The position numbers were made by a program, and so were the translations under genes. The notes under the pieces were generated by a model. It was not told where the DNA came from. It saw only the letters and a program-made list of their open reading frames with translations, and did not search any database. Source: Rozella allomycis CSF55 (taxonomy: Eukaryota). Taken from it: a stretch of DNA of 64,000 nucleotides. The stretch covers positions 62,001 to 126,000 of the forward strand of contig KE560848.1 in assembly GCA_000442015.1 (NCBI GenBank), written 5' to 3'. The stretch's first letter is position 1; every line of letters starts with the position of its first letter. Of this stretch, positions 40,755-51,205 are shown one piece after another.

Positions 40755-43714
40755 TTAAGAAGATTTTGCAGACCTTTTCTTTTTCTTTTTTGTGTCTTTA
40801 ACGAGCTTGTCAAATTGGGGTGCAGAGACTTTAACTTTGCCTAGCATTTGATTGATTAATTCGTTTTCAGGAACAGCTTTAATGACTTCTTTTTCTCTTT
40901 GGGAGAGTTCTTTGATTTGGAGGAATAAATTGAGAGCCATTTTGGATGCTTAATGAGGAATGTGATAGAGACTTACCTTTTCCTTTTTTCAGAGAGCCTG
41001 GGGTCAACTTTACTTTGAATTTGTAATTTGAAAGACAAGAGTAAGGGGCACAAACAGGAATAGCGAATAGAATGATATCATCAGCTTGTGGACATCCAGT
41101 TAAAGAATCGATAAAGGTCAAAGTTTCTTCATTAATGTCTTCAACAGTTTCAATGTTCTCTTCAGTCATTATCTGTGTTACTTCTTGTATGTTGGATTCT
41201 TTCTTCTTTTCTTTTGGTAATTTTTGTTTAATTTCCTTCTTTTCTGGTTTCTTTTCTTCTTTTTTCTTTCCAGCAGATTGCAAAAGACTCATTCTTAATT
41301 CTCTTTCTTCTTCATCTTGATTTGAATATTTTTTCAACATCTTTTTCTTTTTTCCACTTTTGCCTCGTGGAACTTTTTGCTGTTGCTGTTGTGATTGGGT
41401 TTGCTTTTCTTTTTTCTTTTCAGGAATAGGCACCTCATTAATAGATCCAGATCCAGTTTTTCCTTTTTTCATCATTTTTCTTTCCTTTGCGGATATTCTC
41501 TTTTTAGATCCAGATCGCATTTCTTCAAAATTTTCAACATCTTCTTTTGAATTTTCATCTCCAGCCGCATCTAGATCTTCACTCTCAACATTTATATCTT
41601 CAGATTCTTGGTTATCGTTTTCAGCATTAATATTAGCATCATCTTCAACGTCTTTAATGTTTAAATCACTTGAACCCATATTCTCGGGTTGATCTACTTC
41701 AATTTCTAGATCTTCAATTTTATTCTCTTCAACTTCATCTTGATCTTCTGCTAATTCAATTTTGCTAAAAGTGTTTGACAATTCATTTTGAAAATTTTCA
41801 AAATCTATGTTTTCAGGTTTCCTTCTTTCATGTAAATGACGAGAAATGCAAGATTCATCAACTTTAAATAAGAATCCAAATCCATAAACAAGCTGCGTTG
41901 GAGATAAATAATTCTTCTTTCCTCTAATCATAAAACTTCCAGTTCCCAAATATTCTCCAGAGGGGGCTGTCTTTGATACCTTTACTTAAGAGGAGTTAAT
42001 TTAAATTACTTGGTCAGCATAAACAAAGTATGCGCTTGTAACTATTTTTGCATCCCAAGCCCTACTTTGACACACAGACATACAACCAGCTTGGTTTAAA
42101 GTAGCTGGTGGCACTGGATTCCCACTAGGATTCTTTATTATAACACTCCCAGCACCATGGATATCCGCATGCACGTACAAATCACCTTTTACATTCAATT
42201 CACTCAATTACCTTTTCTTAAATGTCTTTTAACAAGCAATTCATTTTGTTGCATATCTCTTCCAGCCAAAACCAAATAATTCTCTGATGAAATAAACCAA
42301 GAAAACTTTTCAAACCAAAATGGCTTTCTAACTTTATTAATCGTTGTTGTCACTTTCACTTGCTTCAAATCATGCTTAATTTTAATCTCTGCATTCTTCA
42401 AAGCTTGCTTCGTTGCATTAATTGTTCTATCATGTTTATAAAGTGCTTGCCTTTTCATATCGTAGTATTTTTGTGCATTTGCAAAAGCTGACATTGAAAT
42501 ATCTAAATCCACTTCAATTCCATCCAACTTTAAAGTTATTCTATTTCTCTCCAACTTTAACTTTACAAACAAAAGAGCTATTGGATTATCATCTTCTTTT
42601 TCGTCTTGAATTAATTCTTCCAACTCTTTCCAATCCATCGCATTCATCAACGCACTTTGAACCACCTTGATAGCTTCATCTGCTGCTTCTAAATTATTCT
42701 CAATAGCCATCGCCTTGTCCTGATATTGTTTCTGATCCATCTCTAAATTTTCAATTCTCTTTTCCAATTCTTTTCTAATTGATTCTAGTTTCTTATTAAA
42801 CACTTCTTCTTGCTGCTTTGCTTTCAGCTCCAATTTTTGTACATCAGATTTCATGTAAAATTCATCCATTGCCAATTCAAATCTTTCATATCTTAACAAC
42901 TTGAATGATTTCAATTGCAAGAGTTCAATTGGATGATACTCTTCATAGATCCCTTCGCATTTTTCATACAAGAATCCTTTAGATGGAGTTTCTTTTATTT
43001 CTCTCAACTTTTCTTCCAATTTTAATAAAAGAAACTGGAAATCTTCATCTTTCATTTTTATAGATGGCAATGAAGGCTCAATTCCATTTTCTAAACACAC
43101 ATGCTCTACCAAGGGAAGAGGAAACAATGATTTTGAAGAAACATACTTTTTTATCGCCTCTTTAGATTTATTATTCAACAACCATTCAGCATTATATTCA
43201 ATTTCATACCTCGCATTTTCAAAAGAATACGCTTCTCCAATCACCATCTTAATATTCTCTGTATTCACAGATCTCAATATACACTGAATAACCTTATTCT
43301 TATCCAACAATATCACATTCCCAGATGCATAAAACTCCATCACCAAATAATTCTTGCTCTCTCCCTCCCCAAACTCCATAACAATAATCCTATCATATCC
43401 AAGCTGATATACAGCATTGCATCGCTTTGTCCGCAAAAACTTTCTCATCTTCATTGTAAATCCATGCGGCATATGCGTTCCCTCCTCCTGCCGATCATAC
43501 GTTGTCAAATTACATCTAAACCCGCTCTCAACTACAAAATATTTCTTTTCACTCGGTTTCGCAAACTTGAACACGAACAGCTTTGCGTTGCCTGGCGTGT
43601 CGTATATATTCTGGCATCTCAGACCTATCAACCTTTTATCAAAAAAACACTCTTTTACGATTGAAGATCATGGTGGAGCGCACATATATCCAAAAGAGTC
43701 ACGCGTTGCTTCAT
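40755..43714 (-). CDS. RQC2: Ribosome quality-control factor NEMF/Rqc2
   Basis: [75 protein letters not shown]. Confidence 0.95.
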
Positions 43715-43746
43715 TTTTAAGATTCCAGAAAATTACTAGTTGACAG

Positions 43747-44605
43747 ATGTACCGGCCAAAATTAATTTCGCGTGGAACTAGTTTTACTGCAAAGTTGCTG
43801 GGCATCACTTGTCCATTGATTTGTGCGGGACTCGGTGTTTGGCAAATGCAGAGATTGGAATGGAAATTGTCGTACATTGAGGATGTCAAGGAACAAATGA
43901 AAATGGAGCCGTTGGATTTCACCCAGTTAAATGAAAAACAATGGCCTATTTGGAGATACATTAATATTAAAGGGAAATTCGAGGAGGAAAGTATACTCGT
44001 TGGGCCAAGGTACTCGGAAGATACTTCTGTTGTCTTTTATGTTGTCACACCTTATGTACTGGAGAATGGGTATGAGATATGCTTTAATTGCATTTAGCGA
44101 AAGAATATTAGTCAATAGGGGTGTCATTGGAGGACTAGATGATAAAACACCAGAAAAATGGTTCAAAGCGGACAATTCGAAATATCCAGAGACACTTAAA
44201 GTTATAGTTAGACCCCACGAAAAGGTGAATTTATTTGAAAAGTTTAAAGTAGATGCCTAGATGGGCAAATGTTAGTCCAGAGTTTAATGGAATCTCATTT
44301 CCCAAGTTTGAGCATAACGAACTACAGAAATGGTTTGATATGGAGAATGTTAATGTTGTAGACATTGTTCCACGTATTATTAACCTTTATTATTAACTGT
44401 AGAACCGGGAATTGAAAATTATCCACAGCCGATTAAGCCGAATCTGAAAATACGAAACAATCATTATGCATATGCTGTATTTTGGTAATAGTTTATTGTT
44501 TATTTGATTAACAGGTTTACAATGTCGGTAGTAACGGCTGGACTACCATTCTTGGCACAAAGGAGTAATCAGTTCAACAAACACCAAAGAAGTCTTCAAT
44601 TATAA
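43747..44605 (+). CDS. SURF1: SURF1/Shy1 cytochrome c oxidase assembly factor, multi-exon
   Basis: GLGVWQMQRLEWK, VGPR, VVTP, ILVNRG, RNNHYAYAVFW. Confidence 0.9.
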
Positions 44606-44615
44606 ATTAAATATT

Positions 44616-45626
44616 CTAAGATTTATTTCCTAATGCTTCTCCAACTTTCACTTTGTCGCCAATTTGCTTTAAAAACTTAAACTCTCGAGGCCCTTCGAAA
44701 AGTAAAACGATCGTGGAGCCTAATTTAAACAATCCAATCTCTTGTCCTCTTTTTAATTCACAGTCGACATTTAAAGCTTCTGTTATCTTTTTCGAACCAA
44801 GAACAATTCCTTTATTTGTTTTAATATCTGTGTCAAGATGGAGCTGAATATTTCCAACATTGGTAGCCGCAACAGGAATCATGTTGAAATAGCCATATCT
44901 CCATTTACCAATCAAATTAATTCTTTCGTTTAAAGAAAACAGCCCTTTAATCTTTCTGAGTGCAATTGGATTAACAGAGAGTAAATCACCCTGTATGTGA
45001 CGAACCCGGAATAGATTCCATTCTGTTGGGGAGTGGAATCTATGATAGTCACCAGGGCCAAGATAAATAATACAGTAATGAAATAGTTGATTGGGATTTG
45101 ATGTAATAATATCTTCATTCATAAACTTTGACATGTTAAATTTAATTCCTTTTTATAAATTAATTTGCGTTTTACCTTTAATTTGTTCTATGGTATTGTT
45201 CTCAACAATTCCCTGGGATATTATTACTCCATCACTCGGGCTAATAAGATTCGCTTCTTCATCAATAGCTCTTTTGGACATGTCTATCTTTCTGGTAAAA
45301 TAATCTTGGAGACTTTCGTATTCTTCTAAATTTTTATTAACCAAGTCATCTAAATCACAACCGAACACTTTCGTGTAAAGTCCAAGGACTGGTTTTCTTA
45401 AGGGTCGTGGTAACTTGAGAGATGTAAATTTTCCCCATGAATAGGATATATATCTGGTTGGTATCAATTGAAGCAGCGCCAATTTCAAAGTAGACTCTGC
45501 CGTAACTTGTCTTTGTTCTCTAACATTCATAGCCGCCTGAACAACGAAACTGGCTACTATAGGTGACGATAAAACAAGTATTCTTTTCCTTCTAGTGTTA
45601 AACATTCCTGAAAAAAATCGTTTCAT
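44616..45626 (-). CDS. PSD1: Mitochondrial phosphatidylserine decarboxylase
   Basis: SPSDG, YLGPGDYHRFHSP, LNER, VAATNVG, FKLGST cleavage motif. Confidence 0.93.
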
Positions 45627-45676
45627 CTAGCCAAAATTCCACCCTGAAATTTCAAAGTAACCCCTGGCGAATTTTT

Positions 45677-47091
45677 ATGTTGGATAGAAATTTATTTCGT
45701 GCTGAATGTGGAGGAAACCCTGAATTAATAAGAGTTTCTCAAAGAAAAAGAGGTGCTTCTCCTCAAGTTGTCGATGAAATCATCGAAGATATCAAAAATT
45801 GGGTGGCAGGTATTCATGTCTAACAATAACCAACTTAGCCGATTTTGCTGTCAGCCAAATGAATAAAGAAATCAATAAAATTCAAAAAGAGATTGGTCAA
45901 AAGAAAAAGAACAAGGAAAATGCTGACGATTTAATCCAACAAAAATCTGATTTAGAAAAACAAAAAGAAGGGTTGTGTCAAGAAGAAAGACGCGTTTATC
46001 AACAAATGGAGGAAAAAATTATCAATGTTGGAAATATTGTCCACCCTTCAGTTGTTGATTCATTGGATGAAGCAAAAAATAAAATTGAGCGTTTGTATCC
46101 TGAAAATGAAGTTCCAGTTAAAAATGAAAAACTGTTGTATCACTTTGAAGTATTGAAAAAGTTGGACGGATTTGATACAGACAGGGGTGTCAAGGTTGTT
46201 GGACATCGCGGTTATTTCTTGAAGAACTGGGGAGTGCGTTTAAATCAAGCGTTAATAAACTATGCAACTGACTTTCTTTTCCAAAAGCAATACACCTTGC
46301 TTCAAACTCCATTCATGATGAAACGGGATATGATGGCAAAGACTGCTCAATTGTCTCAATTTGATGAAGAGCTTTACAAAGTTTCAGGTGATGGAGAAGA
46401 TAAATACTTGATCGCTACCTCTGAACAGCCAATTTCTGTTTTTCATGCAAACGAGTGGCTTGATCCAAAGGAACTTCCATTAAGATACGGAGGTTACTCA
46501 ACATGTTTTAGGAAAGAAGCTGGAGCGCACGGAAAAGATGTTGGTAAGAAACATTAAATTTCTCAATTTAAAGCTGGAATTTTTAGAATCCATCAATTCG
46601 AAAAAGTTGAGCAATTTTGCATCACTGAACCTGAAAAGTCTTGGGATATGTTTGATGAAATGATTAAAACTTCTGAAGAATTTTATAAATCTTTAGATCT
46701 AAAGTTTAGAGTCGTCAGCATTGTGTCTGGAGCATTAAATAATGCTGCGGCCAAAAAGTATGACTTGGAAGCTTGGTTTCCCAGATTCGGTAACTATTAG
46801 ATTATTTTTAAATATAAGGTGAATATAGAGAGCTTGTCAGCTGTTCAAATTGTACCGATTATCAATCAAGAAGGCTAGAAATTAGATGTGGGTATTTTTA
46901 CATCATGTTCTTTACCTAAGATGGGTGATAGGGAAAAGAAATATGTTCATTGCTTAAATTCAACATTATGCGCAACGGAAAGAACTCTTTGCTGCATTTT
47001 AGAAAACTATCAAACTGAAACTGGGCTCAACGTACCAACTGTTCTTCGCCCTTACCTTGGTGGAATCAAATTTATTCCATATTTAAAATAA
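45677..47091 (+). CDS. SES1: Cytosolic seryl-tRNA synthetase
   Basis: [58 protein letters not shown]. Confidence 0.96.
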
Positions 47092-47155
47092 ACAGTTTAA
47101 GTTTTATCTACTTAATACATTGATATTTGACTCATTTATTCGCTATTTATTAATG

Positions 47156-47855
47156 TCACTTAATCTCAATTGGACAATCAGGTTGGTTTTTTGGATGGGC
47201 TATTGAAAATGCATCAATTCTACACAAACGCTCATTAATGGACTTAATTTTTGGAAACTTGTTCATGTCTACTGAAAACCTATTATCTTCTAATCATCAA
47301 CTAACCTCTCAGCATTATAGACTTGAGGAACCAAAAGTACATCCGCCATTGTTATATCATCCCCAACACAATATAACCCAGACGACTGAGTTAATACTTG
47401 TTCAATTGCTTTTATCAAGTTTAATATTAGTTACCTTCAAAACCCTTATTAATCCAAAAAGACCCCCATTCGTTTTTCTTTTCTACTTCGACTTCATTCA
47501 ATACTCTCAAGTTTTGAATTGGCTGAATATCACTAGCTATCATTTGAACTATTTCCCTGACTTTAGCTCTTTTAATTAGATCCTTAGGAAGCAATGGTAC
47601 GTTGTTGTATCTTTCCTCAAGAAATTCTAGAATCGCAACAGACTGACCAAGTATTATTGTCTGTCCGGATTCGTTTTTTAGTTCAATGGAAGGGACTAAA
47701 TGAGAAGGATTAATATGGGAATATTCTCCAGAGTTTTGTTCATTTTTTAAAAGATTAACCGGGACTATTTGGTATTCAATTTTCTTTAAATTTAATGCTA
47801 TTCGAACCCTCCAGGAGCATGAACTGCGATAATAGGAATACAATTTTAAGGCCAT
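47156..47855 (-). CDS. GSTZ1: Maleylacetoacetate isomerase / GST zeta
   Basis: [38 protein letters not shown]. Confidence 0.93.
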
Positions 47856-47906
47856 AAAGTGATAAAGGTAAACGCCACAAAATTAATTTTAAAAGTTAAA
47901 TACACT

Positions 47907-48560
47907 TTATGAATTTAATCCCATTCTCTTTCTTTCACCTCCAAGCTGGAATATGTAAGTTAATAATATATATTACCACTCTTTTGACACGATCTAAAGC
48001 CGCTTCATTGCTAGATTTACAACTCGAGGTATTATATGGCGGTGATACAATGACTTCATCCATTACAACAATGTTCTTATTGTCCCATCTACATGGCAAA
48101 CTGTTGTTACTAATTCTAATTTTTACGTTTTGGATAAGGCATCAAAAACTTTTTGAGCTTCTGTAGTAACTCCAACACCCTTCTTTGATGCATCTATTCT
48201 TCTCTTGTAAACTTCTTTTGCTTCTCTTTCTGCTAATTTTTCTGCATGCAATTTTCTGACAGGGGGTGCTTTTAGCATTCTTGGATCTGAATATGGTGGC
48301 GACTTTAATCTTTCTGTTTTAATTATGCTTTTGGAATTTAAAACAATAAAGTCGCTTTTTGGCGTAACATGCGGTGGCAATGGTTGATTCAGAACATCGT
48401 CTGGTTTTCGCTGTAGAAATTAAGGATTTCACCAAAATATAAAATTTTGAATAACAAAAAGGATATCTAAAACAACAAAGAATTCATCATAAGCGTAAAT
48501 TTGACCCGTGTGTTTTCCTCCATGGACGGTAACAGTAATCCAGTCACCCAAGGAAAACAT
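47907..48560 (-). CDS. LSM12: LSM12 (Lsm + anticodon-binding domain), multi-exon
   Basis: GQIYAYD, GVGVTTEAQKVFDALSKT, CRWDNKNIVVMDEVIVSPPY. Confidence 0.88.
48413..48466 (-). other. U12-type (minor spliceosome) AT-AC intron, 54 nt, in LSM12
   Basis: 5' site ATATCCTTT, branch-site AATCCTTAAT, 3' end TTCTAC; removal restores the frame (TTA G|AG CGA = L-E-R). Confidence 0.85.
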
Positions 48561-48650
48561 TATTGAGAAAATTACAAAAACGAAGAAATGAAATAATTTG
48601 AGGTGTATTTATTAGTGGTGATCTCAAATGTTTGTTTTCGGAATATTATT

Positions 48651-49567
48651 ATGGTACCTTACAACCAAAAGGATAAAAATGCGCAAAACAAAAAGACCGT
48701 GAAAGTTGCCAATATTGATCATCTTGCTTGTATGTATTACGGATTGATTTCCATCAAAATTTTAAAGAAACATGCCAAAATTCCTAAAGAAACTCAATTA
48801 GTTGACGAGACAGACGATATAAATTTCGAGTTTATTTCTCCCAACTCAAAAGTAAAAAAGAAACATTATTTTGTTAAGATTAGAGTGTGCGTTATACAAG
48901 AACTAAGAATGATGAAAAAATTGATGATAACAACACAAGTAAATCATTTGGACATAAAAAAACAACTGAAATGAAAAAGGAAAGTAAACTGGTAAGTGCA
49001 TACTTCATAATTTAGAGATTTCGCCCAGTATAAAACTACCTCCAATTCTTATATCGAATCGTAAAGTACATGGCTACTCGGATGGTTATCAAAAAAGAGC
49101 GACTGAAAATGATACACATAAGAAGAAACCTCATTACCAACTTCCAATTATACCGAGGCCTATTCACAAGAAAAAAGAAATCTTCAGCGTAATTGGACTT
49201 GTTGGATTTTAGTTGAGACCTTTAAATCCTTATTATCAGAACCAAGTTTCTGAAGAAAGAAAGAAAATACTTGATAATGTATATCAAAATAGAATGAAAA
49301 ATTACTTCTTTGGTCCCTACCATGGAGAAGATTTAAACAGAAAAATCGACCCCGTGGAGTTAAATTTAGCACAAAAAAATGAATCTAACCAGATTGGTGT
49401 AGATTACAGCGAAAATTGGCTTTTGAAGCCTGTAAAAAGAACAAAGGTATTATGGCGCTTAATCTTAAACCTAGGCCGACATTAATTTTGATAATTTTTT
49501 TGAAGGACGACCACATAGTGCACCACCAATGTCTGGAGGCTACTATGATCATCTTTTCAATAAATAA
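48651..49567 (+). CDS. Hypothetical protein, multi-exon (boundaries approximate)
   Basis: Protein-like open segments (e.g. 49213-49440) separated by short GT-AG introns; ends GRPHSAPPMSGGYYDHLFNK. Confidence 0.45.
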
Positions 49568-49606
49568 ATGTGCTTCTCTTTTGAATATTATTTGTGATTT
49601 TTCAAA

Positions 49607-51080
49607 ATGAGCTCCCTTCAAGATTATCTACAGAAAAACTATAAGCAGTCGAAAAAGAAAAAAAATTCTTCAAAGAATGTGAAGATTATTGATAACGACG
49701 CGGATTTTATCAGTGAAAATCAAACTGAAAGCCATGATGATGGGGAATTAGTGAGCATCGCAATGCAGAGAGCTGAGCTCAGCGTTGATAATACAGCAAA
49801 GTTTAAGCCTGCTTTTACAAGTTCAAATTTAAAGAAATGGGATAACTTAAATGATTTAACAATTGACAGCAATACTTATAAATCACCTTGGGAAAAAGAA
49901 CAAATGGCTCCAAGACAATCTAGACATGATTCGGATAACGATATATCTCCTCCAAGAAGAAATAGACATGACTCTGATAATGATATGTCTCCTCCAAGAA
50001 GGAATAGACATGACTCTGATAATCCAAGAAGAAATAGACATGACTCTGTTAATGATATATCTCCTCCAAGAAGAAATAGACATGACTCTGATAATGATAT
50101 GTCTCCGCAAAGAAGAACTAGGCATGACTCTGATAATGATATGTCTCCTCCAAGAAGAAATAGACATGACTCTGATAATGATATGTCTCCGCAAAGAAGA
50201 ACTAGGCATGACTCTGATAATGATATGTCTCCTCCAAGAAGAAATAGACATGACTCTGATAATGATATGTCTCCGCAAAGAAGAACTAGGCATGACTCTG
50301 ATAATGATATGTCTCCTCCAAGAAGAAATAGACATGACTCTGATAATGATATGTCTCCGCAAAGAAGAACTAGGCATGACTCTGATAATGATATGTCTCC
50401 TCCAAGAAGAAATAGACATGACTCTGATAATGATATGTCTCCGCAAAGAAGAACTAGGCATGACTCTGATAATGATATGTCTCCTCCAAGAAGAACTAGG
50501 CATGACTCTGATAATGGGGAAAGTAAACACAATGCATCATCATCCCTCAAAAAGTATAATTCTGAAACTGCTAACACTATTGTAAGAGATCATACAGGCA
50601 AGAAAATTGATGTTGCAGATTCCCGCTCAAAAGCCGATATTGCAGACGAAAGGCATGATAAAGTCAAACTGATCAGCTACGGAATGAAACAATTACAAGA
50701 AAAAAGAGATAAGATTGATTTGCTTGAGAAAATGAAAAGCGCTAAATTTTCGAGGTAATGTTTACACTTTAATTTACATAGATATGCCGACGACGTTGAA
50801 TTAAACCAGAACCTGAAAGAAAAAACTCATTGGGATGATCCCTCTAGAACATGGTTAAAGGTACGAACAATGAATTTTAAATTTTTAGTCAACTAACAAG
50901 AAAGTTATCAAACAGGAGTATCAAGGCCCTTTTCCACCAAATCGTTTCAACATCAAACCCGGACATAAATGGGATGGTATTGATCGCTCTAATGGCTTTG
51001 AGAAGAAATATTTTGACCAACTATACATTAACAAAACCAGGGAGCATGAGGCTTACAAAATGGGATCGGTGGACATGTAG
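49607..51080 (+). CDS. BUD13: RES complex subunit Bud13/Cwc26
   Basis: [58 protein letters not shown]. Confidence 0.93.
49922..50515 (+). repeat. Coding minisatellite, 42-nt unit ([10 protein letters not shown][P/Q]RR[N/T]), about 15 copies, 84-nt higher-order dimer
   Basis: Directly visible tandem AGACATGACTCTGATAATGATATGTCTCC units. Confidence 0.97.
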
Positions 51081-51205
51081 TTAATCTTTGATTTTTTTAC
51101 ATGTAAAATAAATATTGTATTTATTCATTTCACTGATAATATTTTGAAAATTTACAAAAAAGGAATTTAAAAATTTCCAAATCCTTACCCTTGTAGAAAG
51201 AAAAA

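Follow-up and report, generated by a model that had tools for sequence, protein, structure and literature searches.

LSM12 and its first intron

The stretch of DNA considered here, referred to below as the window, comprises 64,000 nucleotides of Rozella allomycis CSF55 (contig KE560848.1, positions 62,001 to 126,000), and on its minus strand it carries a gene of four exons (Table 1) which is identified by its Pfam matches as LSM12, with an N-terminal LSM and a C-terminal AD domain. The AD domain scored over the cut-off in exons 2 and 3, while the LSM12_LSM match of exon 1 alone was weak and stayed below it (E 0.004). The public R. allomycis protein, P0001, differs from the window LSM12 by one residue over its full length. 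The surroundings of the gene (window 43700-52000) are dense in reading frames, which were labelled by eye as resembling SURF1, phosphatidylserine decarboxylase, seryl-tRNA synthetase and ribosomal protein L1/L10a; a GST-zeta-like frame, labelled in the same way, begins about 25 nt past the LSM12 stop codon. On the plus strand, a frame of 386 aa (window 49598-50758) contains about a dozen tandem 14-residue repeats of the RHDSD type, and we take it to resemble the splicing factor BUD13.

Table 1. Features of the LSM12 gene (window positions) and of family junctions (Pfam positions on either side)
Feature	Position	Strand	Remarks
LSM12 exon 1	48467..48560	-	94 nt; start codon through base 1 of codon 32
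Intron 1, U12-type, AT-AC, 54 nt, phase 1	48413..48466	-	Assigned by motifs, frame and position common to L145, L157 and L155
Extended 5′ splice site ATATCCTTTTTGT	48454..48466	-	+4 to +13 pairable with both U11 and the U6atac candidate
Branch site TCCTTAAT	48419..48426	-	48420 taken as branch A; complementarity to the U12 candidate
Cryptic in-frame GT-AG, 45 nt	48411..48455	-	Junction of public gene model P0001; rival to intron 1
LSM12 exon 2	48127..48412	-	AD domain E 3e-7; 100% identity to P0001
Intron 2, major GT-AG, 26 nt	48101..48126	-	Junction same as in P0001
LSM12 exon 3	47977..48100	-	AD domain E 6e-14
Intron 3, major GT-AG, 31 nt	47946..47976	-	Junction same as in P0001
LSM12 exon 4, up to stop codon	47907..47945	-	
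Kinase junction	Pfam 122/124		AT-AA; HRD restored; branch A 6 nt from end
XPG junction	Pfam 31/33		AT-AA; branch A 6 nt from end
CBM48 junction	Pfam 31/33		AT-AA; branch A 9 nt from end
Dehydratase junction	Pfam 88/90		AT-AA; branch A 6 nt from end
Syntaxin-6 junction	Pfam 64/66		AT-AC; branch A 9 nt from end

Classification of intron 1 as U12-type is supported by every DNA-level test that was run. The sequence-only reading of this locus had proposed a 54-nt AT-AC intron here, and it was confirmed in the sequence with respect to the donor, the branch site and the open frame of 180 aa which results from AT-AC removal; RNA retaining the intron would run into stops. The intron has a GC content of 20%, and both signals named in that reading, an RTATCCTT donor and a TCCTTAAY element close to the 3′ site, were found, as ATATCCTTTTTGT and TCCTTAAT, respectively, with the second A of the latter located 7 nt before the last base of the intron. 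The pattern consisting of the donor, TCCTTAAY and A followed by C or G did not occur in any of 60 third-order Markov simulations of the window size, and its two matches in the real window represent one site with two ends. Base +5 is C, rather than the G reported for U2-type AT-AC introns (PMC2831892). The intron is also, as had been noted, about twice as long as the major introns around it, since the two others in LSM12 have 26 and 31 nt, and 63 of the 205 major introns predicted in the window fall into a peak of 26-29 nt (the long tail of this distribution is probably in part an artefact).

The argument that the AT-AC boundaries restore the reading frame, and that ending the intron at the neighbouring AG (+2) breaks it, proved correct, but the solution is not unique, as the cryptic 45-nt GT-AG intron and cuts at 60 (AA), 63 (AC) and 66 (AG) nt are likewise in frame. 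Thus, frame alone cannot fix the 3′ end of the intron. Moreover, the predicted junction, ...VVL-E-RKP, lies within a variable loop, so that the end is left unfixed by protein alignment as well, and the PDB provided no LSM12 chain that could serve for this purpose. The branch spacing of 7 nt is shorter than the optimum of 11-13 nt given in the available text of PMC3584512, the counting convention of which may differ.

Comparison with relatives indicates that the position of the LSM12 intron is conserved among early-diverging fungi. In three of 22 metagenome loci compared, whose lineages were judged from likeness to named proteins, genomic DNA is available across the site and contains an intron, each time in the same codon and phase as in Rozella; the other 19 have no intron at the site, are too short, or belong to other groups. 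In the Umbelopsis-like L145 and the Glomeromycota-like L157 the intron starts with ATATCCTTTTTGG and has an in-frame AC end (120 and 103 nt, respectively). The presumed branch A in L145 lies 11 nt from the intron end, by the same count as in Rozella, and the best branch motif in L157, 39 nt from the end, fits the pattern poorly. The third intron, in the Mortierella-like L155, is 197 nt long, starts with the degenerate donor ATATCAAT and ends with AC; L155:825-1021 thus retains AT-AC ends, and its donor hints that the minor donor was altered in the Mortierella-like lineage.

One alternative, which we consider unlikely, is that the major spliceosome excises the cryptic GT-AG intron (48455-48411), giving a protein with DILF at the junction and leaving the U12 signals as a relic or as marks of a minor-to-major conversion under way. 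This intron is in frame and is the one taken by the public model P0001, and our gene finder favours a major-type solution for LSM12 once the AT intron is penalised. Besides, DILF or HILF occupies the intron column in four of the 16 LSM12 rows aligned out of 46 homologues, P0001 included. However, DILF/HILF is the translation of the minor donor itself, and the DNA of L145 and L157 has it as the beginning of the intron. At the same column the close relatives P0027, P0019 and P0039 have QTS or QTP, not DILF, and the intronless L142 reads VVLQCPS. The cryptic donor is also atypical in that it reads GTT; 83% of the predicted major donors carry A at +3. The earlier expectation that standard gene finders would mis-model this gene is borne out by P0001, which reads through the donor as ...VVLDILF/RK. 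The LSM12 models of Apophysomyces, Lichtheimia and Rhizophagus irregularis (P0002, P0008 and P0020), which read into the same donor as DILF or HILF, are probably mis-annotated in a similar manner.

A genome-wide family with the same donor

The 13-nt donor of LSM12 intron 1 is not confined to this gene. The genome contains 23 exact copies of ATATCCTTTTTGT, with about 2.3 expected by chance as derived from 91 sites bearing one mismatch, and 35 copies of RTATCCTTTTTG, compared with four of its reversed control. The 23 copies represent 22 distinct sites, as syntaxin-6 is duplicated. A branch motif is located 40-55 nt downstream at 15 of the 22 sites, versus 23 of 300 decoys, and the GC content of the intron body is 24%, versus 34% at the 86 other RTATCCTT sites. 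When the cost was neutral, introns were placed by the gene finder at 17/22 sites of the family, 10/86 other RTATCCTT sites and 24/300 decoys. This finder is rough and self-trained, and its cost for AT introns was tuned after a first run, in which 6 of 108 sites gained, all six from the ATATCCTTTTTGT family and LSM12 not among them; with the second cost, the 3′ end agreed with our own model in 9 of 16 cases, and 54 nt were chosen for LSM12. Sites with one mismatch to ATATCCTTTTTGT (69 of the 91 examined) behaved as the decoys, both in use as introns (7/69) and in presence of the branch motif (7/69), and the 13-nt donor thus appears to be nearly invariant. A mere relic would not hold an invariant 13-mer at about 20 sites with its one-mismatch variants at background level, which is a further argument against the cryptic GT-AG intron.

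Introns of 49-59 nt can be modelled at 18 of the 22 distinct sites. Eleven of them have AT-AA and seven AT-AC ends, with no GT-AG intron, and they are distributed among phases 1, 2 and 0 as 13, 3 and 2, the same order as that reported for minor introns (PMC10639083). According to Pfam, the products of the host genes include a kinase, an XPG family nuclease, a CBM48 enzyme, a cullin, a dehydratase, syntaxin-6, PEN-2, Snf7, UBE2O, CLASP, a GTPase and an LRR protein. In the 16 introns with a branch motif, the presumed branch A is 6-9 nt from the 3′ end (6 nt in ten of them), a spacing that is in part circular, as the 3′ ends of 13 of the 18 introns were picked partly by nearness to the branch site. 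Where Pfam hits are present on both sides of the junction, the profile positions run across it without gaps in all five cases (Table 1). Not counted among the 18 were L046, which can be read through in frame, and the GC-rich L072, both lacking a branch motif; L055, L056 and L032, whose 3′ ends could not be settled (L032 has G at +13, like the Mucoromycota loci); and L076, a duplicate of L075.

It is still less probable that intron 1 of LSM12 is a true U12 intron cut further downstream, at a branch spacing similar to the human one. The cuts at 60, 63 and 66 nt fall into the variable loop and, as mentioned above, keep the frame, and the 60-nt end would be 13 nt from the branch A, that is within the optimum of PMC3584512. 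On the other hand, the five sister introns whose ends are fixed by homology have distances of 6, 6, 6, 9 and 9 nt between branch A and end, and the gene finder chose the 54-nt form.

Several further observations were made during examination of these sites. The extended donor at L055 belongs to a RasGAP gene. Two copies of the syntaxin-6-like gene with its AT-AC intron lie 5.7 kb from each other (L075 and L076; G000:C861:545001 and 550701), as a result of either a recent duplication or an assembly artefact. The intron-like, AT-rich stretch at L119:745 (G000:C819), whose donor lacks one T (ATATCCTTTTGT), is not used by the gene finder.

A pattern search for minor introns of the GT type gave 26 rows versus 14 for the control. 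Among 29 GTATCCTT sites examined, the gene finder took a single one (L244) as a donor, and no recognisable gene was seen around it. Two exact GTATCCTTTTTGT sites had no branch motif. We found no convincing GT-type minor intron among the 29 GTATCCTT sites; GT introns with weaker signals may exist. A looser donor-plus-branch pattern, which gives several rows per site, returned 123 rows versus 40 for the control and was background-like outside the 13-mer family.

Candidate components of the minor spliceosome

The Infernal-type search for minor snRNAs that had been suggested as a check was successful in part: the U11 gene scored well over the Rfam cut-off (78.1 versus 39 bits), U12 and U6atac were obtained as candidates below their cut-offs, and U4atac was not found. 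The U12 candidate (36.4 versus 53 bits, E 6e-5) matches the model over its full length and has the branch-pairing GUAAGGA and the 3′ loop motifs intact, but without the upstream element ACCCAYAAG. This element precedes the U1, U2, U4, U5 and U6 genes (L253, L259, L254, L260 and L005, respectively) at -59 to -62 with 0-2 mismatches, and the 1.29 Mb of sequence examined contain 15 copies of it. The U6atac candidate (L003; 26.8 versus 33 bits, E 5.5e-4) has an AAGGAGA box, a T-run end and an exact copy of ACCCAYAAG at -62, as in U6; the shared element provides independent support for this assignment. ACCCAYAAG resembles a proximal sequence element and is associated with snRNA genes of the Pol II and the Pol III type alike. 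A TATA-like stretch near -30 is also common to U6 and the U6atac candidate, and compared with the usual start the 5′ end of U2 (L259) seems extended or divergent.

The U11 sequence AAAAAGGG is directly preceded by AC in the DNA, and if the RNA began at these two nucleotides, ahead of the Rfam match, its predicted duplex with donor positions +4 to +13 would grow from 8 to 10 bp (-6.7 and -10.5 kcal/mol, respectively). The upstream element of U11 is degenerate (three mismatches) and lies at -64, a location that fits weakly with an RNA start 2-4 nt earlier. The same ten donor bases are predicted to pair with GCAGGAAGGA of the U6atac candidate (-11.7 kcal/mol), with C opposite the G at +12, and the U12 candidate is predicted to form a 6-bp duplex with TCCTTAAT. 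At two paired positions, U6atac and U12 differ from the Rfam consensus such that helix I is preserved, yet the U6atac/U12 helix by itself was not significant relative to shuffled sequences (p about 0.1). The triad reads GGC instead of AGC, and plants likewise have GGC.

In the case of U4atac, a filtered search of the assembly, which consists of 1059 contigs, gave no match to the Rfam model, four patterns derived from complementarity to U6atac and from the upstream element occurred at control level, and candidate loci scanned with cmscan (9 of 14 and 8 of 17) were all empty. A look-alike at window 45018 was rejected, being the antisense of a decarboxylase-like reading frame and having no Rfam match. 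Of seven minor-associated protein families searched, CRIPT was the sole one found, with a match to chain 7dvq_0; 7dvq is presumably the activated minor spliceosome. None of the other six (48K, 59K, 25K, 35K, CENATAC and TXNL4B; the searches for these included PDCD7, a second Dim1 and a second U1-70K-like gene) was detected in exon-by-exon searches, which take no account of introns and are insensitive amid tiny ones.

A separate observation is that the 5′ end of U4 (L254:1501-1642) can pair partly with stem II of the U6atac candidate (L003:1501-1610), at -12.2 kcal/mol versus -20.2 with U6. The least probable of all readings is that the AT introns are spliced by hybrid or major machinery, either through U11/U12 recognition with U4 in place of a lost U4atac or as U2-dependent AT-AC introns: the failure to find U4atac, the few minor proteins detected and the partial U4 pairing would favour it, but stem I does not form in the cofold of U4 with U6atac, the Rozella introns have C and not G at +5, and the absences are themselves uncertain with filtered searches and an assembly in 1059 contigs.

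Proposed mechanism and relation to known minor introns

We return to the explanation that we favour, with a probability of roughly 0.87, namely that LSM12 intron 1 is an ancestral U12-type intron excised by a retained, compact minor spliceosome, which would cut at the first AA or AC located 6-9 nt past the branch A. The motifs, the frame, the shared position, the sister introns and the snRNA genes are observed in DNA; that the intron is spliced, that the RNAs pair in the cell, and where branching and cutting take place is inferred from them. One RNA run labelled with the species yielded no alignments over 47208-51217, an outcome that speaks neither way. According to this model, the 5′ end of U11 would pair with the extended donor, over 10 or 8 bp depending on where the RNA begins, U12 would pair with the branch site, bulging the A, and U6atac would then displace U11 at the donor through its own 10-bp pairing. 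The 3′ cut would be set mainly by distance, and in LSM12 this rule would lead to the AC at 48414-48413. Under such a rule, the excess of AA over AC ends in the family would be accounted for.

The occurrence of a minor intron in this organism is less surprising than the sequence-only reading implied by referring to the loss of the system in most fungi. Loss has indeed been reported for Ascomycota and microsporidia (PMC10639083, PMC2396436), but Rozella belongs neither to Dikarya nor to microsporidia, and minor introns and snRNAs were reported in Mucoromycota, Zoopagomycota and chytrids (PMC10639083, PMC2396436, PMC2846911). As far as the available text of these papers goes, the U12-type AT-AC introns described in early-diverging fungi (Rhizopus, Phycomyces, Rhizophagus, Basidiobolus, Spizellomyces) share with those of Rozella the RTATCCTT donor, the CCTTRAY branch site, the lack of a pyrimidine tract and the phase-1 bias. 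L145 and L157 share with Rozella both the LSM12 position and the G at +12, hence the extended donor is not specific to Rozella, and the idea that this G is a Rozella-only trait was discarded. What distinguishes Rozella from these fungi is the intron length of 49-59 nt, the majority of AA ends, the distance of 6-9 nt from the branch A to the end, as opposed to 11 nt in L145, and the AT-only set in which no GT-AG minor intron was found; both minor subtypes are described in Rhizopus and Phycomyces (PMC2846911).

Human and fly LSM12 also have a minor intron, which is intron 1 in the fly, and it is of the GT-AG subtype according to the accessible portions of the sources (PMC2831892, PMC6717393, PMC1874599, PMC12084885). 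In the human gene the exon ends with TAA ahead of the donor, consistent with phase 1 following Leu, and this may point to the same position; if the position is the same, a switch between the GT-AG subtype in animals and AT-AC in Rozella would have taken place. Human and fly STX6 carry an AT-AC minor intron as well (PMC2831892, PMC6717393).

More distant parallels are available. Blastocystis, another parasite with a compact genome, is reported to have short minor introns (mean about 42 nt), 77% of which are AT-AC; however, there are 253 of them, enriched in phase 0, compared with about 20 in Rozella, with a phase-1 bias and an AT-AA majority (PMC10639083). In Physarum, as in Rozella, an intron signal and an snRNA appear to have been altered together, and AT-AA makes up 27% of its many non-canonical ends, but there the branch site and U12 are changed and the introns exceed 20,000, whereas Rozella would have lengthened the pairing of the donor with U11 and U6atac in few introns (bioRxiv 2020.10.12.336362). 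In animals and plants, AT-AA is described as the commonest non-canonical end among A-type (AT-AN) minor introns (PMC8280824, PMC10639083); non-canonical ends account for about 4% of conserved minor introns in these groups, versus 11/18 AA ends in Rozella (PMC10639083).

The LSM12 intron itself is, on its sequence features, an ordinary and old U12 intron of a known class. What looks new is the combination of an AT-only, AT-AA-rich set with a spacing of 6-9 nt and an invariant 13-nt donor that is matched by U11 and U6atac. In the literature covered, which included few subscription papers, we found no report on a Rozella U12 spliceosome, Rozella AT-AC introns or a Cryptomycota U11 snRNA. The supplement of PMC9887622 has no Rozella entry, and the available text of PMC11039992 and PMC8280824 does not mention this organism. 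Rozella is absent from the main text of PMC10639083 but is listed among the species of its Figure S1, and this figure, together with the FigShare and database files of the same authors, may already record the Rozella minor system.

A more speculative proposal, which we put forward tentatively, as it may well prove wrong, is that Rozella possesses a stripped, A-type-only minor spliceosome. In such a system the 10-bp donor helix, formed by U11 and then by U6atac, may replace lost or diverged U11 proteins, e.g., 48K, and the 3′ end would be measured by a ruler of 6-9 nt, with the last base being of little weight; under these circumstances AT-AA would become the main subtype. This would correspond to a late stage of decay, at which all GT-AG minor introns had been lost or converted and only the AT introns, hard to convert, were left.

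The Rozella lineage adjoins microsporidia. Since the latter are reported to be devoid of the minor spliceosome (PMC2396436), its presence in Rozella would place the loss after the split of the two lineages. If our main reading is true, the public LSM12 model is wrong at the intron 1 junction, and surveys based on annotated introns are blind to introns of this kind. With about 20 natural substrates, a branch spacing below the reported optimum and a majority of AA ends, Rozella makes distance-based choice of the 3′ splice site directly testable. It has been proposed that GT-AG minor introns convert more readily than AT-AC ones (PMC2831892), and Rozella, in which only AT introns seem to be left, would be a natural test of conversion proceeding from the GT-AG subtype first.
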